The notes beneath the pieces were generated by a model, which was given only the letters and a program-made list of their open reading frames with translations, had not been told where the DNA came from and did no database searches. This document shows, one piece after another, positions 1 through 27,242 of a stretch of DNA of 30,682 bases; the first letter of the stretch is position 1; each line of letters starts with the position of its first letter. The DNA comes from Candidatus Thorarchaeota archaeon (GTDB lineage Archaea > Asgardarchaeota > Thorarchaeia > Thorarchaeales > Thorarchaeaceae): assembly GCA_048884785.1 (NCBI GenBank), contig JBHLQM010000040.1:1-30682 (forward strand), given 5' to 3'. The position numbers and the translations under genes are program-made.

Positions 1-573
1 TATGTTGATGATGCTCATGGAGAGGCGGTTCTCGGAAAGGGCGGTCGAGGTATTGTCTCTCACTTCAATCTCACACATCACGATGTCCACTTTGAGATGG
101 GGACTTTCAGTAAGGCGTTTGGTGTAATGGGAGGACATGTGTCTGGCAGTCGTGACATGGTCAACTATGCCTTGAACAAGAGTCGGTCATGGCTCCTGAG
201 CGCCTCACATCCACCTGCAACAGCAGCCGCATGTATTGCAGCTATTGATGTTCTAGAAACAGAAGAAGAACATGTGAAGACACTCTGGAGGAACAGAGAG
301 TATTTCGTTAAGGGCTTACAGAATCTTGGTTTTGATACTGGGCATAGCCAAACTCCCATCATTCCTGCCATGTGTGGCGAGAGTTCCAAGGCTGTTGCCT
401 TAAGTGAAGGTCTCTTCAAAGAGGGGATCCTTGCACTACCAATCGTATTTCCAATGGTTGCACGTGACAAAGCTAGAATAAGAAATATGATGAATAGTGG
501 TCTTACAAAGGAACAGCTGGATACCGCACTTAGTGCATATGAAAAGGTGGGTAAGAAACTCAGTATCATTTAG
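1..573 (+). CDS. PLP-dependent alpha-oxoamine synthase (2-amino-3-ketobutyrate CoA ligase / BioF family), 5'-truncated by the window edge
   Basis: The frame is open from base 1 (YVDDAHGEAVLGKGGRG...). It contains DDAH, the PLP-lysine motif GTFSKAFG, SQTPIIP and IVFPMVARDKARIR. kbl versus bioF cannot be resolved from the fragment. Confidence 0.9.
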   Translation, partial: YVDDAHGEAVLGKGGRGIVSHFNLTHHDVHFEMGTFSKAFGVMGGHVSGSRDMVNYALNKSRSWLLSASHPPATAAACIAAIDVLETEEEHVKTLWRNREYFVKGLQNLGFDTGHSQTPIIPAMCGESSKAVALSEGLFKEGILALPIVFPMVARDKARIRNMMNSGLTKEQLDTALSAYEKVGKKLSII

Positions 574-754
574 AACTAGATGGCCCATCAGTATGGGACC
601 CGAGGTTGTAGGCAACTATAGATTGATCCAGCGATTTTCTATGCAAGATAATTGGCAGGAAGATACGTTCATTTCTAGGAAATTTTACACACTAAATGAC
701 AGCAACTAAAGATAAATACCGCCACTACAAACCTCTCTCCGAAGGCATGTTACT

Positions 755-3106: not shown

Positions 3107-3188
3107 AATGACAATATATTGGACTCGGGTGAAATTCTAGCTCGGATTCAAAACACAGAAGAGGCGAAATAGGAGCATTGGAGCCAAT

Positions 3189-4181
3189 TTAGAGCGGCAA
3201 CCATGTGCCTATTCTTTTGTCAATTGCGTTACGAAAGACCAACGGAGCCACAGCAATATCATCCATAGCCAGACCTAGATTACAGGATATTGTACGTTCT
3301 TGAGATTTTTCTCTACCCATCTTCAATCCCGCAACCAGCTCACCTAAGTCTGCATAGATAGGAGGTATGTTTTGAAAATAGCCAACCTGTTGGTAGTGGC
3401 GGAGTTGCGGAATGTCATCCGTGCAGAACTTATCAGACTCTCTCAATGCGGCTGGATGCCAGTATGAATCAAAGTCCACGAGAGATGCAAATGCTCCCTC
3501 ATCCATCCAGCCGGGCTGTATTGTTGCGTGCGGTTTCTTTAGGATTGGTCCAGCAGTCACTATAATGTCACATCCAGAAACAGCATCCTTTGGGTTATCG
3601 ACAATGGTAACCTCCAGTCCAAACCTTTCTTCAACTTCGGCCGCATACTTCGCTGACTGCTGGGGATCGATGTCATATGCCATAACATGCTTGAGGGGAT
3701 GAACAATACTGAGGGCTTCAATATTGCTTCGACCTTGTACTCCACATCCAAGAATTCCCACAACTGATGAGTCCGATCTCGCGAGATGTTTGGCAGCAAT
3801 TGCAGTCGCGGCACCTGTTCTCTTGGCAGTAATCCACACACAATCCATTACAGAGATTGGCAAACCTGTTTCCGCATCGTTCAGAATCAGCAATCCGGAT
3901 ATGTAGGGCAATCCCTTCTGTCTATTCAAGGGAAACCCAGATACCCATTTCATACCTGCTGACTTCAAAGCTGGAATATATGCGGGCATCGCGTGAATGA
4001 AATTATCAGAGTTGCCAGGATGTATCCCGGGTTTTGGTGGCATCTCAACTCTCCCCTCAGCCTTTTCTCTGAATGCGGTCTCAAGCTGATGGATAATCTC
4101 CTCCATGCCGATATTGATTCGAGCTACATCTGCCTCTGAGAGATAGAGAAGACGGTTTTCGGGATCTGACAAATGGAACAC
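3189..4181 (-). CDS. Ornithine cyclodeaminase / mu-crystallin / alanine dehydrogenase family protein
   Basis: EMPPK, HAMPAY, GMKWVSGFP, WITAKRTGAATA, Rossmann motif GILGCGVQG, and NLGLAMDDIA. The start codon is uncertain (GTG 4181 or TTG 4172). Confidence 0.92.
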   Translation of the reverse strand: MFHLSDPENRLLYLSEADVARINIGMEEIIHQLETAFREKAEGRVEMPPKPGIHPGNSDNFIHAMPAYIPALKSAGMKWVSGFPLNRQKGLPYISGLLILNDAETGLPISVMDCVWITAKRTGAATAIAAKHLARSDSSVVGILGCGVQGRSNIEALSIVHPLKHVMAYDIDPQQSAKYAAEVEERFGLEVTIVDNPKDAVSGCDIIVTAGPILKKPHATIQPGWMDEGAFASLVDFDSYWHPAALRESDKFCTDDIPQLRHYQQVGYFQNIPPIYADLGELVAGLKMGREKSQERTISCNLGLAMDDIAVAPLVFRNAIDKRIGTWLPL

Positions 4182-4231
4182 CAGTTCGCCAGTTGGTGTT
4201 CACACTGTTATAGATTGTGTCACAATATATC

Positions 4232-4267
4232 GGAGCACCTCTGGCTTCTAGTCAACCAGAGGTCTCC
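4232..4267. repeat. Intergenic inverted repeat (hairpin) just after the 4273-4551 stop; possible terminator or processing site
   Basis: ACCTCTGG (4237-4244) pairs with CCAGAGGT (4256-4263), extendable by GGAG/CTCC with a one-base bulge. Confidence 0.45.
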
Positions 4268-4272
4268 TGCGT

Positions 4273-4551
4273 TCATTTAATCTTCTGATCAACTTTTTCT
4301 AGCTCTACGATAGGCGCAAATCTGAAGCTGACTTCAGGCAGATAGAATCGAGTTATCTTGACGAGGTGCTCAGGGTCTTCAGTTTCAAGCAATTGGAAGC
4401 CTTCAGGCCCATCAAGCATCGTATAGTTCTTTGAAATGAACTTTGCATGTTGTTCAGGATTCTTCTTCACTAGCGCACGAAATTCCTTTAGCTTGTCCAT
4501 TACGGCATTATGGTCAGCTGAATCGTATTCCCAAAACATGATGTACTTCAT
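4273..4551 (-). CDS. Small DUF3303/GYD-like ferredoxin-fold protein
   Basis: 92 aa with the pattern MKYIMFWE...GFQLLETEDPEHL...FRFAPIVE; SD-like GAGGTTGA upstream. Confidence 0.7.
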   Translation of the reverse strand: MKYIMFWEYDSADHNAVMDKLKEFRALVKKNPEQHAKFISKNYTMLDGPEGFQLLETEDPEHLVKITRFYLPEVSFRFAPIVELEKVDQKIK

Positions 4552-4679
4552 TTTCTCAACCTCTTAAAAGTGGAATACAATTCGCCCCAATGCGTTAAGA
4601 GAGTTGCGATAGGAATGTTAATGCGGATGCATTGAATACAATCGTCAAACCTTAATGCTTGTGATGTGATAGCTATATC

Positions 4680-4919
4680 ATGACAGAAATTGAGCGGAAT
4701 ACTACACTCCGGAATGTTCTGTTGAAGGCAGCCCAGGAAAAGACACGAGTCCGATTAATTGGACCTCCAAATACAATTCTATCGGAGGGTTTTGTTGATT
4801 TCATAGGAAATGGGATAGTTGGTATGAAACATCGGATCAGCGAAGAACCAGATGAGTTCATCGTCATTAGTAGTATTATCAAGATCCAAATGATAGGAGA
4901 ATCGCATCAGGCATTCTAG
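4680..4919 (+). CDS. Small hypothetical protein, possibly an Sm/SH3-like beta barrel
   Basis: 79 aa: N-terminal helix followed by short strands (RVRLI, EGFVDFIG, IVGMK, EFIVISSIIKI); TATA-like CTTAAT about 30 nt upstream. Confidence 0.6.
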   Translation: MTEIERNTTLRNVLLKAAQEKTRVRLIGPPNTILSEGFVDFIGNGIVGMKHRISEEPDEFIVISSIIKIQMIGESHQAF

Positions 4920-4932
4920 GGATTGTGTAGCA

Positions 4933-5398
4933 TCATGCTGCATTCATGGCAAGAATGTCCACCGAATAGCCAAGATAGGGTGTTTCTACCATTGGCTTGT
5001 GCATTTCAGAAAATAGTCTTACATAACTGACATGGTCACGGCTGGTTAGAGTGTCCCCATATTTCTCAAGTCTACTTCTTTTTTGAACATATGCCCGTAT
5101 ACCCTCGACAATCTTTCTCAAAAAGAAGGTATTCCGGAGTTTGATTTGTCGCCAAAGATAGATTCTCTTCAACTAATTTGGAACTAGTCCCAAAAGCAGA
5201 CGATCCAATTAGAGTTATGAATCGAAGTAGGCTTGATGCCATGAGGCATGAAAGCGTTCCTGCTTTCTTCTTTCCTACTATGACATCAAGAGCATCTTCT
5301 ATCTGCTGCTCATTAAAGAAACGGCGAAGCGGTTTTCGAGTCGCTTGGAATCCTGTAATCCATTCAAGAAGGCGACTCGATAATGAATCACTCAACAA
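4933..5398 (-). pseudogene. Hypothetical gene apparently split over two overlapping frames (5072-5398 and 4933-5172)
   Basis: SD-like GGGAGGTTGA precedes TTG 5398. The two ORFs overlap by ~100 nt, and the first ends just after an A6 run. No recognisable motifs. Confidence 0.3.
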
Positions 5399-5629
5399 TC
5401 AACCTCCCTAGATTCAGTTCTAACTTAATGTAAACAGATTCAGATACAGAAAATAGAGGGTCGCTTGCATTGAGTGGGACCTGATATACACATGCAGAGT
5501 TACCTATCATCGACACCTTTCAATGATATACAAGATGGCGAACTGTGTCCGTTCACCCATCTCTAATAATAGGGATTTGCGGATGTGAGATAAAAGGATT
5601 GGCTCCTCAGCAAAGAAGCCAGCTTCCCT

Positions 5630-10016: not shown

Positions 10017-11069
10017 GTGTCTGGAACCTCTTCAACAATGACTGAAGATGCAGATGCAATTGTTAAACTTCTAGGCAACAATAGCTTCGAAATTGTTTTC
10101 CAAGACACTCTTAATGCCATTTCCAGACCGAAGGGACGGGACTATAAAAAAGAAGAGCCAGATGTGCTTGTTGTGGTGGGATCTGACCGAACCCTACTTA
10201 ATACTCTTCTATCGATGGCAGATGTATCTATCCCGATTTTTCCAGTTGCATCGAGAGGCCACCCTGGATTCCTCTTTGATGTGACAGTGACCGGTTTTGA
10301 GCAAATCGTTGACGACTTGGTTGCAAAGAGGTGGACAGTTGAACGAAGGACAAGATTGGTAGCAATAATATCCGGGCGAAAGACGCCTCCAACTCTCAAT
10401 GAAGTAGCAATATTTCCAAGAAGAAGTGCTACGCTGCTGCGATATGCATTGCACATTGGAGATGAAGAGTTTTGGCAGGATGGGAGTGATGGGATAATTG
10501 TATCGACTCCTACTGGAAGTACTGCATATTCAATGAGTGGAGGAGGACCAATTGTTATACATCCCGCGAATGTCTTTAGTATTGTCCCTGTTAATAGCGC
10601 AAACCCTTCGAGGAGGGCGATCGTGGTCCCTGATGATATCAAGATAGAAATCCGAGATCTAACGAGTTCAGTCAGGATTGAAGCAGTTCTTGATGGCCAG
10701 TCCCGAATCCCAGTCAAGGATGGGAATATTATAATTGAAAAGTCAGTGCACGATGCCATCTTTGTTAAATTAACTGATGAAAGAATAGCTGCTCTTAGGG
10801 GGAAATTGCTAATAAAAGCTGAAGTTGCAACTGAGAAGACTCAAGAACTACCACCAAGTGCCAAGCTTGTGTTGAAGGTACTTGAATATCATAGAAGTTT
10901 ATCACAAAAGCAAATCATTGAAGAAACAGGACTGCCTTCAAGAACTGTCAGATATGCACTCAGTTTGCTTGTTTCCGAGGCGCTTGTAAGGAAACAGATA
11001 TCACTTCGGGATAGCCGACAAGCAATGTATTCCATAATTCAGGCAACTACAGAAAAACCAGAGAGCTAG
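10017..11069 (+). CDS. NAD kinase-like protein fused to a C-terminal winged helix-turn-helix
   Basis: NADK motifs VVGSDRT (for GGDGT), GHPGFL, LNEVAI and DGIIVSTPTGSTAYSMSGGGP. C-terminal wHTH: LPPSAKLVLKVL...SQKQIIEETGLPSRTVRYALSLLVSEALV...RDSRQAMY. Start uncertain (GTG 10017 or ATG 10038). Confidence 0.9.
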   Translation: MSGTSSTMTEDADAIVKLLGNNSFEIVFQDTLNAISRPKGRDYKKEEPDVLVVVGSDRTLLNTLLSMADVSIPIFPVASRGHPGFLFDVTVTGFEQIVDDLVAKRWTVERRTRLVAIISGRKTPPTLNEVAIFPRRSATLLRYALHIGDEEFWQDGSDGIIVSTPTGSTAYSMSGGGPIVIHPANVFSIVPVNSANPSRRAIVVPDDIKIEIRDLTSSVRIEAVLDGQSRIPVKDGNIIIEKSVHDAIFVKLTDERIAALRGKLLIKAEVATEKTQELPPSAKLVLKVLEYHRSLSQKQIIEETGLPSRTVRYALSLLVSEALVRKQISLRDSRQAMYSIIQATTEKPES

Positions 11070-13221: not shown

Positions 13222-15183
13222 CTATGCAACGACTTCAAGAACGCCATCTAGGACAAGCTTTGTGGCAACAAATTTCATCGCAGGTAGGCTGACGCTTAAT
13301 TTCCGAACAACATCTTGAAGAGGCGTTGACCCATCACACAAATCAACGAACCTAACTACAACATTTCCATAGGCCTTCTGAGTATCTATGTCAACCTCGC
13401 CTTTCTTTCTGAGATGCGAATCCGGCCCAATCTCAACTTGGAAATCAACCCAGCCATACTTTTGCATGATTTGAAGGCATCCAAGTACATACTCCCGAGG
13501 GAGGTCTGTTGCGCGAACAAGACCTCCAACAGTTGAGGAGCTATTAATCGAACTCTTTACCTCAACTATTGCCTTGCCCACATTGCGGTTGGCAAATGGA
13601 AGTCCTTTACCCGCTTCTCGGGCTCGAACAATATAATCTAGGCTTATTGGCCTCAAAGGTAATTCTGCCAACACATTAAAGATTGAAGTTTCAAAGACTG
13701 TTTTGTCGCCATCCCAGTTATCCCAAATACCTGTGTACATCTCCTCAGCTTCGAGAAGGAGTCCTTTCATCTTCTTTCTGTATATTTCCTCTTCACTATC
13801 ATTGTTTACAATTAAAGCCATGACAAAGTTTTGAGATTTCTCAACCATCACAAGGTTTCCTTCGTGTTCTATCGTTTCAAGTGCATCTACTTTTTCCCCT
13901 GTTCCATCGGAAGCGGCATTCATACCTCCAAATGAATCAAGCGCAGAAATGAGGGAGGCGATTGAAGTTGTATCGGCCACCTCATCAGTATAGTCGATAT
14001 GATAGGCGACATCATAGACACCATCTTTTTGGAGAATCATCATCATGGTCAGTATCTTGGTTGATTGAGGAATGTAACTTTCAACTGCAGGTTCCTTTTC
14101 AGGAGTTTCTGTGGTTTCACTGCTTTCAGTTGAGGCCTCTCCAAAACTCCGGGCAAGTGCCCCAACTTCGTCGAACTCGTCGTCCTCCTCCGTGGCTTCA
14201 GCTTCGTGATAGGGTACCGATTCAAATCCACTATCGCCCTGTTGTTTCGTCTGGTCTTTAATATCCAGTCGATCTAAATCGTCTGTCTTGCGGCGAACTG
14301 TAATCATTTCGCTTATAGGTCGATCAGGAAGAGTGACACCTACAGTTTTTGCGGCCACCTCAAGCATGAATCTGATAAATTCATCACGTCTCGCTTTATC
14401 AGTGGCGATCATAGTAAATGTTGGAGCGCCAAGCAACCGCTTTATCTTGTCACCTTTCATTGATTCAGGCAAATCCTGTTTGTTAGCGACAATGAAGAGT
14501 GGTACTGCTGGAGCTTCTTTTCGAATGTTTCGTAGAAGGGTTTTGGTTTGCATGACATTTCTAAACGAGCTGTCTGTAATCAGAAAGATGACATCAGTAC
14601 CCTGGAAATAGAAGCTCCAGAGGTCTTGAAAAACAGCCTGTCCCGCAAAGTCCCATATAGTGACCAAGAAAGTACCAAACTGTATCGTTTCAGATGAGTC
14701 TACAGCGACATTGATTGTAGGCACATATCCTCCTGGTGCAGGTTCACGACCAAAGAGCAGTCGCATAAGTGTGCTTTTACCCACACCACCTGAGCCTACA
14801 AATGAAATTTTGAATCGTGTGAAAATAAGCTCACCCAGAATATCTTCGAGATTGTCTTTAATATAGCCCATCGAGTTCCCTCTGAGGGCCGTCGCAATGC
14901 GTGCTGCGCCTTCGCGTACTTTATGCTGAATTACGCGGTCCTCATCACGACCATCTGTGATGAAGAGAAGAAGCACATTCTCATTTACCTCTGAGTGAAA
15001 GACCTTATGGGCCTCTCCAATGAAGACGGGAGTATCTTTGGCCAAACCCTCCGTAGTATGAAGATCAGAATAGCCCCTCAGAAACTCCTGAATATTTTCG
15101 GCTTCAAAATCAATCTTCCAGAATCGAGCCCTCACCACAATTTCCCCTTCTCTTTTGTTGATGAGTAGCACGTTATGAATCAT
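13222..15183 (-). CDS. Longin - Arf-like small GTPase - longin - tandem winged-helix protein (Asgard eukaryotic-signature type)
   Basis: G1 GSGGVGKST, G2 YVPTI, G3 WDFAGQ, G4 NKQD, G5-like IAT. N-terminal longin-like MIHNVLLINKREG; acidic linker aa ~300-370; second longin (SLISALDSF, IEHEGNLVMVE, WDGDKTVF); two wH-like repeats. Confidence 0.88.
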   Translation of the reverse strand: MIHNVLLINKREGEIVVRARFWKIDFEAENIQEFLRGYSDLHTTEGLAKDTPVFIGEAHKVFHSEVNENVLLLFITDGRDEDRVIQHKVREGAARIATALRGNSMGYIKDNLEDILGELIFTRFKISFVGSGGVGKSTLMRLLFGREPAPGGYVPTINVAVDSSETIQFGTFLVTIWDFAGQAVFQDLWSFYFQGTDVIFLITDSSFRNVMQTKTLLRNIRKEAPAVPLFIVANKQDLPESMKGDKIKRLLGAPTFTMIATDKARRDEFIRFMLEVAAKTVGVTLPDRPISEMITVRRKTDDLDRLDIKDQTKQQGDSGFESVPYHEAEATEEDDEFDEVGALARSFGEASTESSETTETPEKEPAVESYIPQSTKILTMMMILQKDGVYDVAYHIDYTDEVADTTSIASLISALDSFGGMNAASDGTGEKVDALETIEHEGNLVMVEKSQNFVMALIVNNDSEEEIYRKKMKGLLLEAEEMYTGIWDNWDGDKTVFETSIFNVLAELPLRPISLDYIVRAREAGKGLPFANRNVGKAIVEVKSSINSSSTVGGLVRATDLPREYVLGCLQIMQKYGWVDFQVEIGPDSHLRKKGEVDIDTQKAYGNVVVRFVDLCDGSTPLQDVVRKLSVSLPAMKFVATKLVLDGVLEVVA

Positions 15184-17064: not shown

Positions 17065-18291
17065 TTATCCGGATTGATGCTTCACCAGCTTTTCGAAGGA
17101 TTTCACCCCTCGCATATAGTTTTGGTATAAAGTAAACATCTGAGAGATATCATACTTCAGCTCATGAGAACCTCCACCTGATGGTATTATGGGAAGATCA
17201 GAAATTGCATCTTGGACAGTGAAAGCTTTGGTCAATGTTGCCGATTCATCTAAAGAATGCTCAACCCTCTTCTCTTTGCCCACTTTCTGAAATAGAGGCA
17301 ATGGAGCAGCTGGAACTTCGCCTGAACGATTTGCAGCAATAAAAACACGTCTTCTTAGCTGTGGAACTCCATATTGCTCAGCATTAAGCTGGAACCATGT
17401 ACATGAGTAGCCGGAGGTCCGAAGTCTTTCTTGAACCTCACTCAGGACCGACTGGTTTCTTTTTGTTTTCAAACCTACAACATTCTCAATTATTACATTC
17501 TCAGGTTGAAGATGCTCTACAATTCGTAGGAGTGAAAACATCAGCATGTTTCGAGGATCACCCAGCTCCCATTTTCCTGCCATGGAAAACCCTTGACAGG
17601 GCGGCCCTCCCGCAAGAATTCCAAGTGTCCGGCCTTTGAGTTGTGTCTCTGCAAGTTCTACAAATTCCTGAATTCCGTCGGATTTAGAAAGATCCAGACC
17701 AAGTGCCCTTGTCTTTGGATGATTCTCTTTGTAAGTGGCTATCATATGCTGGTTGTTATCTACTGCCAAGAGTACATTATGATTTGAGTCATGAAGACCT
17801 TGAGATAGACCACCAGCACCAGAAAACACATCAATGGCTCGGGTATGTCTGATGGTTTTGCCGATTGCTCGAGCCAGCAATGGAGGCACAGCATTTCCAA
17901 TCTGCTTGTAGATAGATGTGTTGCTGCCAAGGAATCTATAATCATCCTGGAATGATTGAAGACGTGCTGCCTCCCTGAAGGAAATGAGTCGATTCTGAAC
18001 CGGATGAATAAATGTGCCATTTCCTGGGCGATTGAAATATGTGTTAATTGTATAGCTCGGCATATCTTGTCTTAACCGCCCATAATATGTTGTCCGACCT
18101 CCTTTCTTTCTAATGTTCATGACGCGGTCCGATTGATTTGCTACATGTAATGGTATATTCTTCCAATTACCTCCAGGTGGAACAGACTGAATCATTAGCA
18201 TATCCAGTTCGCTTAATCTTGCAGAAACGTGGTTGTAGACTAGTGAAGAGCTGCAAGAAAGTGCAGACTGGATTTCCTCGGTTTGTTTCAT
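17065..18291 (-). CDS. DNA (cytosine-5) methyltransferase with circularly permuted motif order
   Basis: The target-recognition region, motif IX (REAARLQSF) and motif X (YKQIGNAVPP) precede motif I (DVFSGAGG), IV (GGPPCQGFS), VI (ENV) and VIII (YGVPQLRRRVF). Confidence 0.93.
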   Translation of the reverse strand: MKQTEEIQSALSCSSSLVYNHVSARLSELDMLMIQSVPPGGNWKNIPLHVANQSDRVMNIRKKGGRTTYYGRLRQDMPSYTINTYFNRPGNGTFIHPVQNRLISFREAARLQSFQDDYRFLGSNTSIYKQIGNAVPPLLARAIGKTIRHTRAIDVFSGAGGLSQGLHDSNHNVLLAVDNNQHMIATYKENHPKTRALGLDLSKSDGIQEFVELAETQLKGRTLGILAGGPPCQGFSMAGKWELGDPRNMLMFSLLRIVEHLQPENVIIENVVGLKTKRNQSVLSEVQERLRTSGYSCTWFQLNAEQYGVPQLRRRVFIAANRSGEVPAAPLPLFQKVGKEKRVEHSLDESATLTKAFTVQDAISDLPIIPSGGGSHELKYDISQMFTLYQNYMRGVKSFEKLVKHQSG

Positions 18292-18336
18292 GGCTGCTTT
18301 TGAAATGCTAATGACCGCATGAAAATGTTACCATGT

Positions 18337-20520
18337 TCATTTAATATAGCCCAGAATACTCGAGATGAGCTCTTGAGATGCGTTCCGTAAGTTCAATATG
18401 CGTTTGGCATCAGCTCTGGATAGATCATAAAGCTCGAAGATACTGGCTTCCAACTCAGGATGGTTAGAATGCCCCTCCAAGAATGCATCTCTCGCAAGTT
18501 TCACAATGCCCTGCATATTTACATTATGTCCATTGCAAAAGGTATCAACGATAGGTAGCATACCTAACTCTCGATTTGAAACATGGTTGTTTGTGTTTGA
18601 AATAGAAAATCGCCAATTTAGCAACTCTGAATTTAGCACTCCAGCCAGATAATCAAGCATATCTTCAGGTTTACCGCTAGAAATGCAAATGTAGTTGCAT
18701 GAATTTGCCAAAACAGATCCCTTTTCAGCCTTGGCAAACTTGAGCCTCCAGCGCTGGCTCCTATTTGATACCTGCTGGCATATGATGCGCCTTTGTGAAA
18801 TGTGTTTCATTCTGTTTGAATCCGGACGGGATTCCATGAAAGCTCCTAAATCTACGAATTGCTGTTTCTTTCCGCCTTTCCCGAAGTCAAGGGAGTATCT
18901 GCGAATGTTCAGCCCCCGTATTAGCGGATGTGCAGAAGGAGAACCACTTAGGAATTTCTTATCCAAAGTCAAATCCAACTCTCCACGATGGTTGTGGATG
19001 AGATCATATGACGACAGTGGAGGGTGCTTGTGCAGTTTTCCCAGTATCCGCCAATCCTGTGATGCAATCTCTGGTATAACATACGTATCCCCAAAAATGC
19101 TTCTTATTTGCTGGGAAGTCATTCTGTAGCTGCTCTTCGTTGCCGCAGTCTGCAATGAAGGCATATTGGGACGAAAGAGAATCTCCTCGGTCGATCCGTG
19201 TTTGACAACAATGGCGATGCATACGGACTGAGTTACGCCGGGAAAGAGCTGAGCTGCTTCGGAGAAACTATCAATGCTTTCGAGGGAGTTTTGGCTAATC
19301 AAATGACGTCTAAGGCTTTTCGATGAGAAATCGCCGAGAAGTGTCGATGGAACAATGAATCCGATACGCCCGCCTTCTTTTGCCAATTGAAGAGAGCGTT
19401 CAATGAACAATTGATATGTATTGATGGAATTCGAGGCACTATATTCAAACTCACCTGAATGCTTGAAGTAATCGATTTCTTCAGACATCAGAGTTCTATA
19501 CGATTCATATTCCTTCATATCAATATTCGATAGTCCTGTCCTAAGCATAGATCGCACGAATTCAGCGAGATTTGGCTTTAGACGCTCATAGGGAGGATTG
19601 AAGAGTATGAAATCAAATCCTCCGTTATTCAGTATATCATTGAATGCATCACTCCACTCGAAAACTGCTCTTGTATGGTGGGATGTGAAGAATCCGGAAT
19701 GGTCCTTATCTCCTGTAAGCCCCTTCAGACTGATTATGGAATTACCGCTTTGGAAATTATTGAAATTGGCTGTCGGCTTTCTTTTTCTCATTAATGAAAA
19801 ACATACTCTCGCAATCTCCAAAGCAGCGATGTCTAGATCCACTCCATGCATATTGCGAGACATGAGATTCAGTATACTCTCATGTGTGCTTTCATTCTTT
19901 GATGATAGTCCCGGTAATACATTTGCAAGAAATGAGTATACAACATCCAAAGCTGATAGAAGAAAGATACCAGGACCACAGCAGGGGTCTAAGAATTGCA
20001 GTTCACCTAGTTTTTTCAAGAGAGTTTCTACATCATCCTGAGAAGAAGACACAATCTCTGTAAGGCGTGGAATCAGAGTCTTCTTTGAAATAAAGCGCGC
20101 AATATTTGATGGTGTGTAGAATGCGCCAGTCATTTTTTTCGTAGAATTGCCTTTAGGTGAAAAAACATGGGACCCAATACTATGCACCGAACCTAGTAAG
20201 TCGGCAAGCTCCAGAATGGTTTTGTTTCGTATTACTCTACTATCATATTTGAATCTGAGTCGCGGGATAAGCCCCATCGCGATGTTTCTGACGGTCTCCT
20301 CTTCCACAGAATTTCTGAAACCAGTCGGAGATAATTGTCTGAAAGTCAGATCTTCGGTTGCATTTTGGGAAGTCCCTGTCCATTCCCTTATTATACGCTC
20401 TAGAGATAAAATTCGAATTACTTCAGACCGAACTGAGCGGGACCAATCTGCAGAAGAATGCTCAACTTGGCTTTCGACGTCTTTTAGAATAGCTAAAGCC
20501 TGGTTAGCAAACATCTGCAA
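18337..20520 (-). CDS. N6-adenine DNA methyltransferase (gamma class, Alw26I/Eco31I/Esp3I-like)
   Basis: GAFYTP (X), LDPCCGPGIFL (I), GVDLD (II), FDFILFNPPYERLKP (IV), YQLFIERS, GFIVP, and C-terminal LNSELLNWRF...TNNHVS. Confidence 0.9.
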   Translation of the reverse strand: MQMFANQALAILKDVESQVEHSSADWSRSVRSEVIRILSLERIIREWTGTSQNATEDLTFRQLSPTGFRNSVEEETVRNIAMGLIPRLRFKYDSRVIRNKTILELADLLGSVHSIGSHVFSPKGNSTKKMTGAFYTPSNIARFISKKTLIPRLTEIVSSSQDDVETLLKKLGELQFLDPCCGPGIFLLSALDVVYSFLANVLPGLSSKNESTHESILNLMSRNMHGVDLDIAALEIARVCFSLMRKRKPTANFNNFQSGNSIISLKGLTGDKDHSGFFTSHHTRAVFEWSDAFNDILNNGGFDFILFNPPYERLKPNLAEFVRSMLRTGLSNIDMKEYESYRTLMSEEIDYFKHSGEFEYSASNSINTYQLFIERSLQLAKEGGRIGFIVPSTLLGDFSSKSLRRHLISQNSLESIDSFSEAAQLFPGVTQSVCIAIVVKHGSTEEILFRPNMPSLQTAATKSSYRMTSQQIRSIFGDTYVIPEIASQDWRILGKLHKHPPLSSYDLIHNHRGELDLTLDKKFLSGSPSAHPLIRGLNIRRYSLDFGKGGKKQQFVDLGAFMESRPDSNRMKHISQRRIICQQVSNRSQRWRLKFAKAEKGSVLANSCNYICISSGKPEDMLDYLAGVLNSELLNWRFSISNTNNHVSNRELGMLPIVDTFCNGHNVNMQGIVKLARDAFLEGHSNHPELEASIFELYDLSRADAKRILNLRNASQELISSILGYIK

Positions 20521-20757: not shown

Positions 20758-21408
20758 TCAACCTTGATGCATTCTGTACCTTCTAACTTGTGGTTCGGCT
20801 AGTCGCAAACTCAGCATTAGCAATTCCGGCCCACGGGATCTAATGAGCTTTCCAAGACACTCCAATGCAAGAGGCAATTCCCGTCTTACATATTCAAAAA
20901 GACTTCTTTCCGATTCACTGAGAGCTGCAACCATATTTTCTATATGCTGATGGACAATTGCCCGCCGCTGCACTCCTGATTCCGCAAGAATGCATCTTTC
21001 CAACTCCTGCAGAATCTCCTCACTGACAACCTTCGATTCTGAAATGACCTTTGATGTTACTCTTGTTGCCCCATGTTTTAGATCTTCTTGCTGCGCTCTA
21101 AGGCTGCCTACAACAAGTCGCATCTCGTCAAGTGGAACTCTAGGCTGTACCTCCATTTCATCAACGTCACTAACTAGCTGTCTTCTATAGGCTCTCTTGC
21201 CATGAAGGTTTGTTGCCAGGAGAAAACCTTTGCTTTCCATATCGTAGAGATGCTTACGAAATTCCTCACGTGTTGTGAGCGAATGTCTGGCCGATATATG
21301 AAGAAATCTCTGAAACATTGTTTCCTCTAGCGCAATAACGCCCCAACCAAATGTTCGCATGATATCTAGCTCAATAGGATTAGGACGCCCGTCGCGTTCA
21401 GGCATCAT
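20758..21408 (-). CDS. Hypothetical protein with N-terminal winged-helix-like domain (paralogue A)
   Basis: 216 aa; EEFRKHLYDMESKGFL...LHGKRAY helix-wing pattern; clearly similar to 21544-22194. Confidence 0.8.
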   Translation of the reverse strand: MMPERDGRPNPIELDIMRTFGWGVIALEETMFQRFLHISARHSLTTREEFRKHLYDMESKGFLLATNLHGKRAYRRQLVSDVDEMEVQPRVPLDEMRLVVGSLRAQQEDLKHGATRVTSKVISESKVVSEEILQELERCILAESGVQRRAIVHQHIENMVAALSESERSLFEYVRRELPLALECLGKLIRSRGPELLMLSLRLAEPQVRRYRMHQG

Positions 21409-21543: not shown

Positions 21544-22194
21544 TCATTTGTATTTTCGAACTTGTGCTTCGGCCATTCGGAGGCTCAGCAGAAGATAATC
21601 AGGGCCTTTGTAATGTAGAATGCTCTGGACACGATGAAGAATCTGTGGAGTTTCTTTTCGTATATATCGAATTAGATCCTCCTCCGATTTGTTCAAAGCT
21701 ATTCGCATATTTTCGATATGCCTAGCGGCAGCTATTTTGTCAATCTTGCCAGCCTTTGTCTGTCTTGCCAATAATTCCTCAATTCCCTTAATGATTTCCT
21801 CACCTGTTGCTTCGGACTGGGTAATGAGCTCTGATGTGACCTTTGTCGGAAAATCAGGTTCTTCCTTCTGCTTGACTCTGCGGCTCGCAAGCGCTAGTTT
21901 CATCTCCTCGTTGGGATTTCTAGGAGCTGTGATCTCTTGTACTCGTTTATCAATAAGCAGTTTCTTGAAAGCCCTTTTTCCATGAAGGTCTACTGATGCC
22001 AAAAAGCCCTTTGACTCCATTCTACGAAGAATTTTCCTGAAATCATCAATTGTGGTGAGAGAATGTGACATTGAGAGATGAGTATATCTTTCGAAGAGAA
22101 TAGATTCCAATTCAACAATCGCCCAAGCAAATGACCTAATTACATCTAGCTCTGTCGGATTTGGTATTTCGACTCTCGTGTCACGGACCTGCAT
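21544..22194 (-). CDS. Hypothetical protein with N-terminal winged-helix-like domain (paralogue B)
   Basis: 216 aa; shares NPxELD, HSLTT, MESKGFL, LHGKRA, HIENM and LSLRxAExQVR with 20758-21408. Confidence 0.8.
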   Translation of the reverse strand: MQVRDTRVEIPNPTELDVIRSFAWAIVELESILFERYTHLSMSHSLTTIDDFRKILRRMESKGFLASVDLHGKRAFKKLLIDKRVQEITAPRNPNEEMKLALASRRVKQKEEPDFPTKVTSELITQSEATGEEIIKGIEELLARQTKAGKIDKIAAARHIENMRIALNKSEEDLIRYIRKETPQILHRVQSILHYKGPDYLLLSLRMAEAQVRKYK

Positions 22195-22313: not shown

Positions 22314-22733
22314 TCATTCTTTATCCAAAACAAGTATCTTCGGTAGTTTCAACAACATCCCCATGTTTCGACCTGTCGTTCCTCCCTTGTAGCGAAGTTT
22401 CCTCTTACCGAACCTGTTCTTCCCAGTCATCATTTTCACAGTGGAATATTCGCCATTTGTGAAGTACAGCAAATCCTCAGGGTCAGAGATGAGTTCTAGA
22501 TCAAATTCGCTCAGCTTCCCTTTGCCCAGAGAAAAACTGCCGCCTTCAGCTACAAGGTTCACCCATAGGATGAAGTCTTCTTCAACATGTAAACCCAAAT
22601 TAATCTTGGCTTCAAATTCATCGAGAATCTTTGCATTCTCGGGATTCTTCCGCTTGTCAGCGATTACATCCATAATTACAGCTTTGAATGTATTGAATAG
22701 GATTTCTTGTGCTGCATCATCCAACATAATCAC
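22314..22733 (-). CDS. Divergent SCP2-like lipid-binding domain protein
   Basis: 139 aa with an SCP2-like pattern (WVNLVAEGGSFSLGKG, DLELISDPEDLLYFTNGE, KLRYKG); 10 nt downstream of a clearer SCP2 gene. Confidence 0.6.
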   Translation of the reverse strand: MIMLDDAAQEILFNTFKAVIMDVIADKRKNPENAKILDEFEAKINLGLHVEEDFILWVNLVAEGGSFSLGKGKLSEFDLELISDPEDLLYFTNGEYSTVKMMTGKNRFGKRKLRYKGGTTGRNMGMLLKLPKILVLDKE

Positions 22734-23222: not shown

Positions 23223-23516
23223 TTAAACGGTTTGGTTTCCTCCTGATACAAGTGGGAATATTGCTATTTCATCCCCATCCTTTAGAATTGTCTCCATGCC
23301 GTCCAAGAATTTTATCTCTCTGCCATTCTTCAAGATAGTGATATCAGACTTGATCTCGTGCTTTTCATCGAGTAGGGCGTTTCTTATGGCCAAATCTTGG
23401 CACAGTTCCTTCAGGAGATTGGCAATTTTCGCAGTATCACCTAGGTTCAGCTCCACCAGCATTCTTCCTCCAATCTGGTCACGGAGGTTTGCGTAGAATT
23501 TAACAAGTATTTTCAT
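23223..23516 (-). CDS. MoaD/ThiS/SAMP ubiquitin-like sulfur carrier with a 4-aa extension after GG
   Basis: MKILVKFYANLRD...ILKNGREI...LKDGDEIAIFPLVSGG followed by NQTV-stop. Confidence 0.92.
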   Translation of the reverse strand: MKILVKFYANLRDQIGGRMLVELNLGDTAKIANLLKELCQDLAIRNALLDEKHEIKSDITILKNGREIKFLDGMETILKDGDEIAIFPLVSGGNQTV

Positions 23517-23535
23517 CGGAGCTCATCGCAAAGCC

Positions 23536-23582
23536 AATCAGACATCAGCCTTATAAAACCGTACAGATACTGAGTCCTGATT
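23536..23582. promoter_or_regulatory. Compact divergent promoter with a central TATA-like box and a flanking imperfect inverted repeat
   Basis: TTATAAAA at 23551-23558 in an 81-bp gap; AATCAGacaTCAG (23536-23548) and CTGAgtcCTGATT (23570-23582). Confidence 0.45.
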
Positions 23583-23597
23583 AGAGGCGTTCACCAA

Positions 23598-26500
23598 ATG
23601 TATGGTTACATGGGAAGAATCCTGAGAATAAATCTAACGACAGGTACTATCACTGAAGAATTCCCGGATGAAGAAACGCTTAGAAAGTACCTTGGAGGCT
23701 CAGGGCTCGCAACCAAAATTCTATTTGAAGAAACCCAGGCAGGAATCGATCCCCTAGGGCCGGAGAATAAGCTCATCTTCATGACAGGTCCATTGACAGG
23801 AACACATTCACCCAGTACAGGACGATATAGCGTGGTAACGAAGTCACCACTTACAAATGGCTGGGGTCACGCAAACTCTGCAGGTTTCTGGGGAAGGGAT
23901 TTCAAACGGTCAGGGTTCGATGGTGTAATTTTCGAGGGTATATCACCTAAACCTGTTTACCTACTTACTGAAGATGGGAATGCGGAGCTAATTGATGCCA
24001 GCGAGATTTGGGGCAAGAACACATCTGAAACAACAAGAATTCTGAAAGAGAAACATGGTGCCAAATTCAATGTTGCATGTATTGGAATTGCAGGCGAAAA
24101 CCTAGTCAAGTATGCCGCAATAATGAATGACTGCGACGAAGAAAATTGGGGACGTGCGGCAGGACGTTGCGGTGTGGGAGCTGTCATGGGATCAAAGAAC
24201 CTCAAGGCGATTGCATCAAAGGGGACCATGACAATCCCGATTGCTAATCCAGATGTGTACAGAACAGAGGCTAAACAGCGATTCGACTGGGTGAATCAGA
24301 GTATTTTGAAAATGACACTTGAGGTCTATGGAACTGCCACTATGGTGGACCTAGTCAATGTCAAGGGAGGTATTCCAACTCGAAATTGGCAGACAGGTGT
24401 ATTTGAGAATGCAGAGAAGATAAACGGCACTGCGATCAACGAAAACATACTTGTTGAACGAAAACCTTGTTTTGCCTGTCCCATCCATTGTGGGAGGATT
24501 GCGGAAATAAAGGCGGGTCCATTCAAGAGTAAAGGAGAGGGACCAGAGTATGAAACAATTAGCTCCTTTGGAACCATGTGTGGCGTGGACAACCTCGAGG
24601 CAATAACGCGCGCCCACTTTCTTTGCAATGAATATGGGATAGATACTATCTCTGCAGGAAGTACAGTAGCCTTTGCAATGGAATGCTATCAGAGAGGAAT
24701 CTTGAAAGCCGAAGATGTAGATGGATTAGATTTCACATTTGGAAACGCGCAGCTAATAGTTGACATTGTTGAGAAGATTGCCAGGCGCGAAGGTCTAGGC
24801 GACTTACTGGCTGAAGGCACAAAAAGGATGTCAGAGAAGATTGGACAGGGTTCCGAGAGGTTTGCCATGCACGTAAAAGGACTCGAGCTTCCGGGATATG
24901 ATAGCCGTGCAGCGAAAGTGACTGGGCTGGCATATGCAGTTGCTAATCGCGGTGGAGATCATATCACAGCATTTATCGAGGGACCTGCATTTCTTGCCAT
25001 GCCTTTCATGATTGTGGAGGATGCTGATGTTGGAGATCCTCTGAAGGAGATTCCTGAAACTGCATTGGTTGTGAAGAATTTTGAAGATTCTCTAGGTAAT
25101 TTTGATGCCATCGGCGGTTGCAAGTTCATGGGGATGGTTTTGACCGCAGATGATTGGGCTGGACTAATGTCTAGCCTAATGGGAATAGAGATGACCGCAG
25201 ATGAGTTCCGCAAGACAGGGGAACGAATTTTCAATCTTGAACGTGCGTATATATTGAGGGAGGGATTCACACATGCCGATGATACTTTGCCGCCTCGATT
25301 GCTGGAAGACCCACTTCCAGAGGGTCCCGCAGAGGGTCAGGTAGTGAATCTCGACATTCTCCTCGAAGCATATTACAAGTATCGCGGATGGGATGAATAC
25401 GGAAGACCAACTATTGAGAAACTAAAGGAGCTCGGCCTAGAGTGGCTGATTGATACAGTCCATGGAAGACCAAGCCCAATACAGGAAATTGTCAAACTGA
25501 AGACTCAACAGATATCTGATTCAATCAGCAAGACAATGACCATTGCAGAGACGAAAGAACCTCTTGGTGACAGACCATGGCTAAACAGCTACCAGATTGG
25601 TCCGTTTAAGCTCAAGCACTCTATGGCTCCTTACCCAGAAGTGAACATCTACAAATTCCTCGAGGATACTGCGAAGGAATTTCCTGACGTTGTCGCATGT
25701 GTGTATGCAGATGAAGAAATGACGTATCCAGAATTGAAAGACAAAGTGGATCGATTGGCTTCAGCTTTTGTTGCTTTAGGGGTCAAGAAATGTGATGCAA
25801 TTGCATCTGTGCTTCCATCCTGTCCAGAATTTATCATCACAGATTATGCTGCGATGAAAATAGGAGCAGTCCATGTGCCTCTTAGCATTTTACACAAAGC
25901 CGGCGACCTACAATATGAGCTCAATGAGAGCAAAGCCGAGCTCGTAGTTTGCTCATATAGGCGCCTGGAAAGAGTGAACGAGGTCAAATCCAACACACGG
26001 GTGAAGACAGTAATTTATGTCCCCACCAAACTGTATCCAGATTATGATTATCCCGAGATGGAAAGTATAGAGGATGAAAACTATCACCTTATGAGCGACC
26101 TGATTGGGAAATATGAACCTCATAAAGAGAGAATTGAAATCAATCCAAAGGAAGATATCGCTCTACTCCCCTTCACTGGAGGAACGACAGGGCTTCCAAA
26201 GGGAACAATGCTTACCCATCACAATGTGACATCAAACGTGCGGCAATCTATCCATTGGATGATGGAACCGCTAAAGGAAGGTATCATTGGAAAAAGTGCA
26301 GCCGTGATATGCGTTCCAATATTCCATGCATATGGTCACTGGGCGGTTCACGCATGTATCTCATGGGGTATCAAGATGCACCTTATGGATTCACGTGACA
26401 TCACTAAAATCGTTGATGTCATAAACAAGCATCGCCCATTCATTGTGTTTGCCGTTCCAACACACTACACCTTCTTTTCGCAAATGGACCTTATTAAATC

Positions 26501-27242
26501 TCAGATATTCTATTTCTCAGGAGCTGCGGCATTGCCAGCAGATCTTGCCGAAGAATTTGAAAAGAAGTCAGGAGTGCCCATGGGAGAGGGCTATGGAGCA
26601 ACAGAAACATCCGGTGTTGCGACAATAAACATCTCAGCGCTTTCGAAAGTAACAGGATTCATGGCAGAGATAAAGAGAGGCGTAGGGATTCCAATCCCTG
26701 ACACTGAGGTCAAGATTGTTGACCCAGATACAGGTGAAGAACTGCCTATTAGCGAACGCGGGGAAATCTGGCTTCGCGGAAGACAGATCATGAAAGGCTA
26801 TTGGCCAGACCCTGGAAGTGGATTGAAGGATGGCGGTTGGTTGCCTATGGGAGATATTGTTGAAATGGATATTGATGGCTACTTCAAAGTCGTTGACAGA
26901 ATTAAGGATATGATCAATGTCTCCGGAAACAAGGTGTACAGCAGGGTCATAGATGATATTCTACATGAGCACAAGGCCGTTGAGATTGCGGGAGTCATAG
27001 GTATTCCTGACCCGGAGAGACCGGGCAGTGAGAGGGTGAAGGCATTTGTCCAACTGAAGCCTGAGTTCAGAGGAAAGGTCTCAGAACAGGATATTATAGA
27101 CTTCCTGAAAGGAAAAGTCAAACCGTATGCAGTTCCAAAGTGGGTAGAATTTAGAGATGAATTGCCCCTGACAATTGTAATGAAGTTATTCAAGAAAAAG
27201 CTCAGAGAAGAGGAACTTGCGAAAGTGCAGCAGAATTCCTGA
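23598..27242 (+). CDS. Fusion of tungsten aldehyde:ferredoxin oxidoreductase (aa ~1-617) and long-chain acyl-CoA synthetase (aa ~659-1214)
   Basis: AOR motifs: GYMGRILRINLT, TKSPLT, RAAGRCGVGAVMGSKNLKAI, CFACPIHC, GPEYET, RGGDH, GGCKF. ACS motifs: RPWLNSY, LPFTGGTTGLPKG, GEGYGATE, MGD, DRIKDMI. One uninterrupted frame. Confidence 0.93.
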   Translation: MYGYMGRILRINLTTGTITEEFPDEETLRKYLGGSGLATKILFEETQAGIDPLGPENKLIFMTGPLTGTHSPSTGRYSVVTKSPLTNGWGHANSAGFWGRDFKRSGFDGVIFEGISPKPVYLLTEDGNAELIDASEIWGKNTSETTRILKEKHGAKFNVACIGIAGENLVKYAAIMNDCDEENWGRAAGRCGVGAVMGSKNLKAIASKGTMTIPIANPDVYRTEAKQRFDWVNQSILKMTLEVYGTATMVDLVNVKGGIPTRNWQTGVFENAEKINGTAINENILVERKPCFACPIHCGRIAEIKAGPFKSKGEGPEYETISSFGTMCGVDNLEAITRAHFLCNEYGIDTISAGSTVAFAMECYQRGILKAEDVDGLDFTFGNAQLIVDIVEKIARREGLGDLLAEGTKRMSEKIGQGSERFAMHVKGLELPGYDSRAAKVTGLAYAVANRGGDHITAFIEGPAFLAMPFMIVEDADVGDPLKEIPETALVVKNFEDSLGNFDAIGGCKFMGMVLTADDWAGLMSSLMGIEMTADEFRKTGERIFNLERAYILREGFTHADDTLPPRLLEDPLPEGPAEGQVVNLDILLEAYYKYRGWDEYGRPTIEKLKELGLEWLIDTVHGRPSPIQEIVKLKTQQISDSISKTMTIAETKEPLGDRPWLNSYQIGPFKLKHSMAPYPEVNIYKFLEDTAKEFPDVVACVYADEEMTYPELKDKVDRLASAFVALGVKKCDAIASVLPSCPEFIITDYAAMKIGAVHVPLSILHKAGDLQYELNESKAELVVCSYRRLERVNEVKSNTRVKTVIYVPTKLYPDYDYPEMESIEDENYHLMSDLIGKYEPHKERIEINPKEDIALLPFTGGTTGLPKGTMLTHHNVTSNVRQSIHWMMEPLKEGIIGKSAAVICVPIFHAYGHWAVHACISWGIKMHLMDSRDITKIVDVINKHRPFIVFAVPTHYTFFSQMDLIKSQIFYFSGAAALPADLAEEFEKKSGVPMGEGYGATETSGVATINISALSKVTGFMAEIKRGVGIPIPDTEVKIVDPDTGEELPISERGEIWLRGRQIMKGYWPDPGSGLKDGGWLPMGDIVEMDIDGYFKVVDRIKDMINVSGNKVYSRVIDDILHEHKAVEIAGVIGIPDPERPGSERVKAFVQLKPEFRGKVSEQDIIDFLKGKVKPYAVPKWVEFRDELPLTIVMKLFKKKLREEELAKVQQNS

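Follow-up and report, generated by a model that had tools for sequence, protein, structure and literature searches.

An in-frame fusion of an aldehyde:ferredoxin oxidoreductase with a FadD-type acyl-CoA ligase in Thorarchaeota, and the conserved gene pair to which it is related

Positions 1-30,682 of contig JBHLQM010000040.1 (assembly GCA_048884785.1, Candidatus Thorarchaeota archaeon), referred to below as the window, carry a gene in which an aldehyde:ferredoxin oxidoreductase (AOR) is joined to a FadD-type acyl-CoA ligase. The analysis confirmed that this is one genuine in-frame gene encoding both enzymes, with both sets of catalytic residues intact. The open reading frame (ORF) listing and the translation gave 1214 codons on the forward strand (positions 23598-27242) with zero internal stops. 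A Pfam scan of the protein identified four domains, each match spanning the whole profile: (i) AFOR_N (aa 6-210, E = 3e-78), (ii) AFOR_C (aa 238-614, 3e-139), (iii) AMP-binding (aa 688-1069, 3e-85), and (iv) AMP-binding_C (aa 1118-1193, 8e-13). No carrier (PCP/ACP) and no reductase domain was found in the same scan. The original prediction, made from the sequence alone, had described a complete AOR with a CxxCxxxC motif and a distal Cys, ending in KLKELGLEW and followed by a stop-free linker and a complete FadD-type enzyme. All of these elements were recovered: full-length AFOR_N and AFOR_C with C291, C294, C298 and C508, the KLKELGLEW end at aa ~616, a linker (aa ~624-656) whose translation contains no stop, and full AMP-binding and AMP-binding_C domains that align end to end with 3G7S. 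In public annotation, the fused homologues are merely named "AOR C-terminal domain-containing protein".

The source genome is a metagenome-assembled genome (MAG) of 158 contigs with 5.4% contamination, and two separate genes might have been joined by chimeric assembly, a frameshift or an overlooked stop codon. The distribution of the fused form argues against this. A word-indexed search of 5.8 billion proteins for fused homologues retrieved ~32 full-length four-domain proteins of 1204-1226 aa from NCBI, JGI, ENA and Logan, all named Candidatus Thorarchaeota and 78-86% identical to the query, as well as four further fused proteins at 61-63% identity, one of which is labelled Hodarchaeota. When 400 genomes of the phylum were searched, the full-length, stop-free fused frame was found in no fewer than 15 further species-representative genomes belonging to the same family as the window (designated f1), and several f1 copies truncated at contig ends are also stop-free across the junction. 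All 19 fused junctions that were extracted are in frame and stop-free, and measure 96-132 nt, every length being a multiple of three. Since the open frame recurs in ~35 independent proteins and at least 15 species genomes, from dozens of independent assemblies and four data sources, an overlooked stop codon or chimeric assembly can, for practical purposes, be excluded.

A second fused copy, 80% identical to the first, occupies positions 39-3680 of a 3.8-kb contig of the source genome (C142, locus L002). The tree described below places it with a sister clade whose members come from other genera. This copy is either a paralogue or co-binned DNA, the genome being contaminated to the extent given above.

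The two enzymes had been described as normally separate proteins. In the present family, in contrast, they form a conserved adjacent pair. In distant orthologues (57-75% identity for both halves) the same two genes are adjacent, collinear and separate. Such split pairs were located in genus g11 of f1 (Thor-type), in f22 (Loki-type; its records bear the name Promethearchaeota) and in the Heimdallarchaeota-type family f11. The split AOR ends in "...ELGLEW.I..IY*", the spacer is 38-250 nt long (1.1 kb in one case), and the ligase starts with "M..SY.DKPWLK...". Given these end and start points, the linker of the fusion corresponds to three elements of the split genes: the AOR stop, now lost, the spacer, and the N-terminal part of the ligase. 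Relatives with a stop within the linker had been named as evidence for two genes; such stops occur only in these distant orthologues (at most 75% identical), and the closer relatives are stop-free. The split pairs therefore support a functional coupling of the two genes and do not refute the fusion.

When the two halves were concatenated (50 rows), the maximum-likelihood tree required two gains of the fusion, one in a clade of 17 in f1 and one in a clade of 2 in f11. Both clades have 100% support in the Shimodaira-Hasegawa-like approximate likelihood ratio test (SH-aLRT) and are nested among split forms, and the linkers of the f1 and f11 fusions are unrelated in sequence. Judged from the tree and the junctions, the fusion arose from a pre-existing AOR-ligase pair at least twice. 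Two further candidates were rejected. The "open frame of 1276 aa" in genome G173 is not a third fusion, as its junction contains many stops and the genes are split. The in-frame TGA of the orthologues from f1/g11 is not a site of selenocysteine insertion or recoding, since it lies exactly at the AOR C-terminus and is followed by the ligase start codon.

The gene pair extends beyond the Asgard archaea. The alignment of the ligase half was scanned against one genome per prokaryote species, which gave 80 loci. Where the ligase is at least 42% identical, an AOR of 53-62% identity lies directly upstream on the same strand in almost all loci. Approximately 25 bacterial loci carry the pair, in Chloroflexota, Desulfobacterota, Syntrophomonadaceae/Bacillota and Actinomycetota; the hosts comprise Ardenticatenales, Dehalococcoidales, Anaerolineae, Actinomycetota, Desulfobacteraceae, Desulfatiglandales, Desulfomonilaceae, a Desulfovibrio sp., Syntrophomonadaceae/Bacillota and one "Parcubacteria" MAG. 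No bacterial AOR-ligase fusion was seen. When 1.84 billion cluster representatives were searched exhaustively with HMMER, using the fusion protein without its last 14 residues, the nearest stand-alone AORs were 45-48% identical and the nearest stand-alone ligases 43-45% identical, and the best 150 matches included no other long protein matching both halves.

AOR-family proteins of other architectures were also encountered in the searches. Many archaeal proteins of ~810-840 aa (P0053-P0103 and P0120, from Nezhaarchaeota, Methanomethylicaceae and Hodarchaeales) consist of an AOR-family enzyme (38-48% identical to that of the fusion) joined to a 3-hexulose-6-phosphate synthase/OMP-decarboxylase-type domain, and may couple formaldehyde oxidation to its fixation. 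Two proteins of 707-760 aa (P0107 and P0114) carry N-terminal poly-ferredoxin domains (multiple 4Fe-4S dicluster).

The AOR module of the fusion scored 262 bits for AFOR_N and 465 bits for AFOR_C, against cutoffs of ~30 and 27. It aligned with the Pyrococcus furiosus enzyme (1AOR) over residues 1-614 (phmmer, E = 1e-161). An AlphaFold2 model of the fusion was built from a 101-sequence alignment (mean predicted local distance difference test [pLDDT] 88.5); in it, the AOR module has pLDDT values mostly above 90 and was matched by Foldseek to 1aor_A with a TM-score of 0.97 and a root-mean-square deviation (rmsd) of 1.7 Å. Further matches were the AORs sensu stricto of C. autoethanogenum (9G7J) and Aromatoleum aromaticum (AorB, 8C0Z) and an electron-bifurcating enzyme (9MQX), and all of these share with 1AOR and the fusion the same fold over more than 600 residues at 40-45% identity. 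The Cys ligands of the [4Fe-4S] cluster, which align with Cys288, Cys291, Cys295 and Cys494 of the P. furiosus enzyme, are retained as in 1AOR-type enzymes, and so are the catalytic Glu and His near the metal (E319 and H455 of the fusion for Glu313 and His448). The positions of Glu332 and His383, the dimer-bridge ligands in P. furiosus AOR, are occupied in the fusion by Arg338 and Val388.

The module differs from 1AOR-type enzymes in its covalently attached ligase, in a 5-aa insert at 179-185 that is found in the Asgard partnered AORs, and in a clade-specific hydrophobic loop (aa 452-490). The latter segment is common to 33 ligase-partnered AORs from Asgard archaea and bacteria; in ~40 stand-alone AORs the same segment is variable and differently gapped. 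It is 89% identical among the fused orthologues, yet has a pLDDT below 50 at 459-476. A conserved but poorly modelled hydrophobic segment would suit a partner- or ligand-dependent element. The module presumably binds a tungsten or molybdenum pterin cofactor and presumably uses ferredoxin as its partner. The Pfam scan of the window ORFs found no ferredoxin gene in the cluster, nor, in contrast to some related systems, neighboring AorA/AorC-type electron-transfer subunits.

The ligase module scored 287 bits for AMP-binding and 50 bits for AMP-binding_C, and is collinear with Archaeoglobus fulgidus FadD-1 (3G7S) along its entire length. Its best NCBIfam match is PRK06187 (long-chain-fatty-acid--CoA ligase), at 361.6 bits and thus under the cutoff of 476; by this measure the module belongs to a distinct clade inside the FadD-like ligases, outside the PRK06187 subfamily. 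As in FadD long- and medium-chain synthetases (3G7S, PRK06187), the A3 P-loop (TGGTTGLPKG), A5 (GYGATE), the A8 hinge (DRIKD) and the A10 Lys are present, and A7 was recognized as well. Like the A8 hinge, the A4 His gate and a FACS-like signature are kept. Gly/Tyr stand in place of the Trp that limits acetyl-CoA synthetase to acetate. In the AlphaFold2 model, the ligase adopts the adenylate-forming conformation, with TM-scores of 0.82-0.88 to adenylate-state structures versus ~0.7 (rmsd 10-11 Å) to thioester-state structures.

Besides its invariable partnership with an AOR, the module is distinguished from the FadD type by its A10 motif. The original prediction had pointed to an atypical C-terminal LPLTIVMK with the Lys preserved, and the alignment to A. 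fulgidus FadD-1 bore this out, placing M1195 at the near-universal Gly and K1196 at the catalytic Lys. In AOR-linked ligases, the motif reads LP[LFM]T..[ME]K. Met-Lys was found in all 11 Asgard loci of the ligase scan and Glu-Lys in 22 of the 25 bacterial partnered ligases, the others having Leu-Lys (one) or Gly-Lys (two). All ~38 unlinked relatives (at most 39% identity) whose tail was recovered have the canonical [VI]GK. Conservation of Met or Glu across the partnered clade indicates a selected trait and not decay. Since linkage and clade are confounded, the change has the standing of a signature, and no statistical association can be claimed; read in this way from the alignment, Met or Glu before the A10 Lys marks the AOR-partnered ligase clade.

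In 31 Thorarchaeota fused proteins, the linker has a mean pairwise identity of only 20%, whereas the AOR halves are 88% and the ligase halves 81% identical. It is 34-40 residues long in these proteins and rich in Thr, Glu, Lys and Ser. On the model, it is a flexible tether and not a structured channel. The predicted template modelling score (pTM) of the whole protein is 0.83. For two bodies of 620 and 550 aa, this is above the ~0.5 that would be expected, from the way in which pTM is computed, if they floated freely, which suggests that AlphaFold predicts a defined arrangement of the modules.

The genes divergent from the fusion were compared, by tblastn of the window neighbors, with 20 loci of ~20 kb from f1, f11 and f22 (Table 1). 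A gene for an SCP2-fold protein adjoins the AOR-ligase pair in all 20 Asgard loci and in roughly every second bacterial locus. The SCP2 fold of the 149-aa product is a solid assignment by profile comparison (E = 5e-31 to Thermus thermophilus SCP2, 2CX7/1WFR, over 2-126 of 131 positions). A search for larger proteins in which this SCP2 is fused to another enzyme found none, which is weak evidence. The MoaD/ThiS-like gene is present in 13 of the 20 loci. Its product scored 69 bits for SAMP1 (cutoff 60) and 65.8 bits for moaD_arch (cutoff 49.5) in NCBIfam, and its C-terminal Gly-Gly is kept in 24/24 orthologues adjoining the pair; a role in pterin cofactor supply is probably the ordinary explanation. 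The 139-aa protein gave weak Pfam SCP2 matches in 7 of 15 orthologues (best E 8e-4) and a weak ESM Atlas lead. Comparison of its family with the SCP2-partner profile by hhalign gave 0.2%, that is, no relation, and the family profile had no match in the PDB. It is possibly a second, very divergent SCP2-like protein.

Table 1. Features of the fused gene and of the adjoining region in the window.
Feature	Position	Strand	Basis
Fused AOR::acyl-CoA ligase gene (P0001)	23598..27242	+	single ORF, 1214 aa; four Pfam domains; fused orthologues in many genomes
AOR module, AOR sensu stricto type (aa 1-622, AFOR_N + AFOR_C)	23598..25463	+	phmmer, Foldseek, pLDDT
[4Fe-4S] ligands C291-x2-C294-x3-C298	24468..24491	+	aligned to P. 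furiosus AOR Cys288/291/295
Clade-specific hydrophobic segment after catalytic His455, GGDHITAF-IEGPAFLAMPFMIVEDADVGDPLKEIPE	24951..25067	+	AOR alignment
Fourth [4Fe-4S] ligand C508	25119-25121	+	aligned to Cys494 of P. furiosus AOR
Inter-module linker (aa 624-656)	25467..25565	+	pLDDT ~25; fast-evolving
FadD-like AMP-forming ligase module (aa 657-1214)	25566..27239	+	Pfam, NCBIfam, 3g7s alignment
A10 motif LPLTIVMK: M1195 for usual Gly, catalytic K1196 kept	27162..27185	+	aligned to ...TASGK of 3g7s
Divergent intergenic region between the fusion and the moaD-like/SCP2/139-aa genes	23517..23597	.	81 bp; same layout in f1 fused loci
MoaD/SAMP1-type small beta-grasp protein, 97 aa, ...SGG + 4-aa tail	23223..23516	-	Pfam ThiS 1e-11
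SCP2-fold lipid-carrier-like protein, 149 aa	22744..23193	-	Pfam SCP2 25.6 bits vs 21.3 cutoff
139-aa conserved protein	22314..22733	-	beside SCP2 gene in 11/11 f1 loci

Other neighbors vary. An iron-containing alcohol dehydrogenase (Fe-ADH) is encoded in 4 of the 20 Asgard loci (three of f11 and that of G277, in each case right next to the SCP2 gene), and a MaoC hydratase lies 3' of the ligase in one split Thorarchaeota locus. In 24 bacterial loci, the Pfam scan of the 127 ORFs lying no more than 3 kb from the pair found ThiS (8), SCP2 (7), the 2-hydroxyacyl-CoA dehydratase D-component (HGD-D, 4), GMC oxidoreductase (4-5), Fe-ADH (4), acyl-CoA dehydrogenase (3) and enoyl-CoA hydratase (2). 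The four HGD-D ORFs come from bacterial loci L086-L112. The GDSL esterase and MFS transporter genes downstream of the fusion in the window were considered as members of the module and rejected, as they are not conserved beside the pair.

Several further observations were made in the window. Immediately upstream of the module, the gene of a C-5 cytosine methylase (17065-18291, minus strand) adjoins that of an Eco57I/MmeI/TaqI_C-type N6 methylase-specificity fusion (18337-20520, minus strand), and the two (17065-20520) probably form a restriction-modification island. Two tandem ORFs of 216 aa (20758-21408 and 21544-22194, both minus strand) belong to no Pfam family; both match one ORF of locus L046 at 45-47% identity and are apparent paralogues. 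A 653-aa protein (13222-15183, minus strand) contains an Arf/Roc/Ras-type small GTPase domain at ~122-255, an Asgard-style eukaryotic signature protein whose large flanks are unexplained. An unusual enzyme-regulator fusion (10017-11069, plus strand) consists of an NAD kinase with a C-terminal MarR-type winged helix (278-335). The ~1.4 kb at 4182-5629 contain no ORF of at least 100 aa on the expected strands except a 108-aa ORF starting with TTG. There was no tRNA or Rfam match anywhere in the window.

Asgard papers mention AORs and acyl-CoA synthetases (ACSs) only separately (PMC8163825, PMC11291895). In full-text literature searches, neither an AOR-ANL fusion nor the gene pair was found described, in line with the remark in the original prediction that no characterized example was known. 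Both enzyme families are well known.

Two known systems resemble the fusion in part. In the anaerobic phenylalanine catabolism of A. aromaticum, phenylacetaldehyde is reportedly oxidized to phenylacetate by a tungsten AOR and then activated by phenylacetate-CoA ligase, so that the logic is the same: aldehyde to free acid by an AOR and free acid to acyl-CoA by an ANL ligase. The proteins of that route are separate and its substrate is aromatic; its genes are not known to form an obligate pair, and no SCP2 partner is known. Carboxylic acid reductase (CAR), like the fusion, has an ANL module covalently linked to an enzyme of acid/aldehyde redox chemistry. CAR contains a phosphopantetheinyl carrier and an NADPH reductase domain, both of which the fusion lacks according to Pfam; in addition, the redox module of the fusion is a pterin/[4Fe-4S] AOR and, unlike that of CAR, lies N-terminal to the ligase.

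We consider it fairly probable that the fusion converts a hydrophobic aldehyde into the acid, with reduction of ferredoxin, and the acid into acyl-CoA, the direction and the substrate class being taken from the gene context. An alcohol dehydrogenase or oxidase, or another source, would supply the aldehyde; fatty alcohols, wax esters or plasmalogen breakdown can be named as its origin, as a matter of speculation. The AOR module would oxidize this poorly soluble compound to the free acid and pass two electrons to ferredoxin. The FadD-like ANL module would then adenylate the acid (ATP to AMP + PPi) and thioesterify it to acyl-CoA, which would enter beta-oxidation. The flexible tether of ~33 aa would keep the modules close and in a 1:1 ratio, and would have been created when the AOR stop codon of an AOR-ACS operon was lost. 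The SCP2-fold neighbor(s) would probably solubilize the lipophilic substrate or product and hand it over, and the MoaD-like neighbor would support the supply of the pterin cofactor. For a long-chain substrate, the cost of activation is that of any free fatty acid, and the low-potential electrons of the acid/aldehyde couple go to ferredoxin and are not spent on NAD+.

This oxidative route is favored by the completeness of both modules with their catalytic residues, by the strictly adjacent, collinear order of the AOR and the ligase in f1, f11, f22 and ~25 bacterial loci, by two fusions with unrelated linkers together with clade signatures in both partners, by the SCP2 gene beside the pair in all 20 Asgard loci, and by the pTM value. 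Alcohol-oxidizing enzymes recur within 3-4 kb of the pair, as do acyl-CoA dehydrogenase, enoyl-CoA hydratase and MaoC among its neighbors. The hydrophobic aldehyde and the oxidative direction were chosen because of the SCP2, Fe-ADH/GMC and beta-oxidation neighbors, i.e., from context only; the direction, the substrate class, the ferredoxin partner, the identity of the metal and any real channelling are what we infer. Several points weigh against the route. AORs are reversible and the Fe-ADH neighbors fit either direction; the route consumes two ATP equivalents, and a CoA-acylating aldehyde dehydrogenase would consume none; the chemistry of the ligase could be altered, given its unusual A10 residue; and only SCP2 and MoaD are neighbors that are not lineage-specific, the window's GDSL esterase and MFS genes not being conserved next to the pair in the 20 Asgard loci. 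Moreover, the linker is disordered, its sequence is unconstrained, and fused forms are no more common than split ones, so that a built-in tunnel is not required.

An unlikely alternative is that the pair works in the reductive direction. The ANL module would activate an acid and the AOR would reduce the acyl-AMP or acyl-CoA to the aldehyde with reduced ferredoxin, as an analogue of CAR; or the ligase would run in reverse (acyl-CoA + AMP + PPi to acid + ATP) and the AOR would reduce the acid. An alcohol dehydrogenase would then form fatty alcohols, which would serve lipid synthesis or the disposal of electrons. In favor of this alternative, AORs are reversible, reduction of an unactivated acid is thermodynamically hard, the replacement of Gly by Met or Glu is restricted to AOR-partnered ligases and could reflect non-standard chemistry, the Fe-ADH neighbors are compatible with it, and the ligase was modelled by AlphaFold in the adenylate-forming state. 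However, Pfam detects no PCP/ACP carrier or reductase domain, the ligase keeps its CoA-thioester-forming features, the acyl-CoA dehydrogenase, enoyl-CoA hydratase and MaoC neighbors point to catabolism, and the hosts are typical beta-oxidizing anaerobes. We know of no AOR that accepts acyl-adenylates or thioesters. The variant in which the partnered ligase, instead of simply making acyl-CoA, passes an acyl group that it has activated as an adenylate or a thioester on to the pterin site is quite improbable; it would make the protein an ATP-driven, ferredoxin-dependent, carrier-free carboxylate reductase, a tungsten-based counterpart of CAR producing fatty aldehydes or alcohols in anaerobes. It is also rather unlikely that the modules are merely co-expressed and act independently, in general aldehyde detoxification and general fatty-acid activation, with neither hand-over nor interface. 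A disordered linker that evolves nearly neutrally, the common split forms and the lack of any SCP2 fusion (itself weak evidence) would fit such independence; conservation of the adjacency across two domains of life, two independent fusions, matched clade signatures in both partners and the high pTM do not.

The fusion acts as a "Rosetta stone" that ties together one AOR clade, one acyl-CoA ligase clade and an SCP2 carrier. The AOR-ligase-SCP2 module that it reveals is widespread and unstudied; its hosts are Asgard archaea as well as bacteria of sediments and of syntrophic habit. As a self-contained enzyme leading from aldehyde to acyl-CoA (or, should the reductive direction apply, from acid to aldehyde), the protein would also be of interest for biocatalysis. 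If the oxidative route is true, the module would constitute a ferredoxin-reducing path by which lipid-derived aldehydes and alcohols enter beta-oxidation, and would give a physiological context to most of the "unclassified AORs" of this clade. It would also bear on how low-potential electrons are harvested from lipids by energy-limited anaerobes and by the archaeal relatives of eukaryotes.

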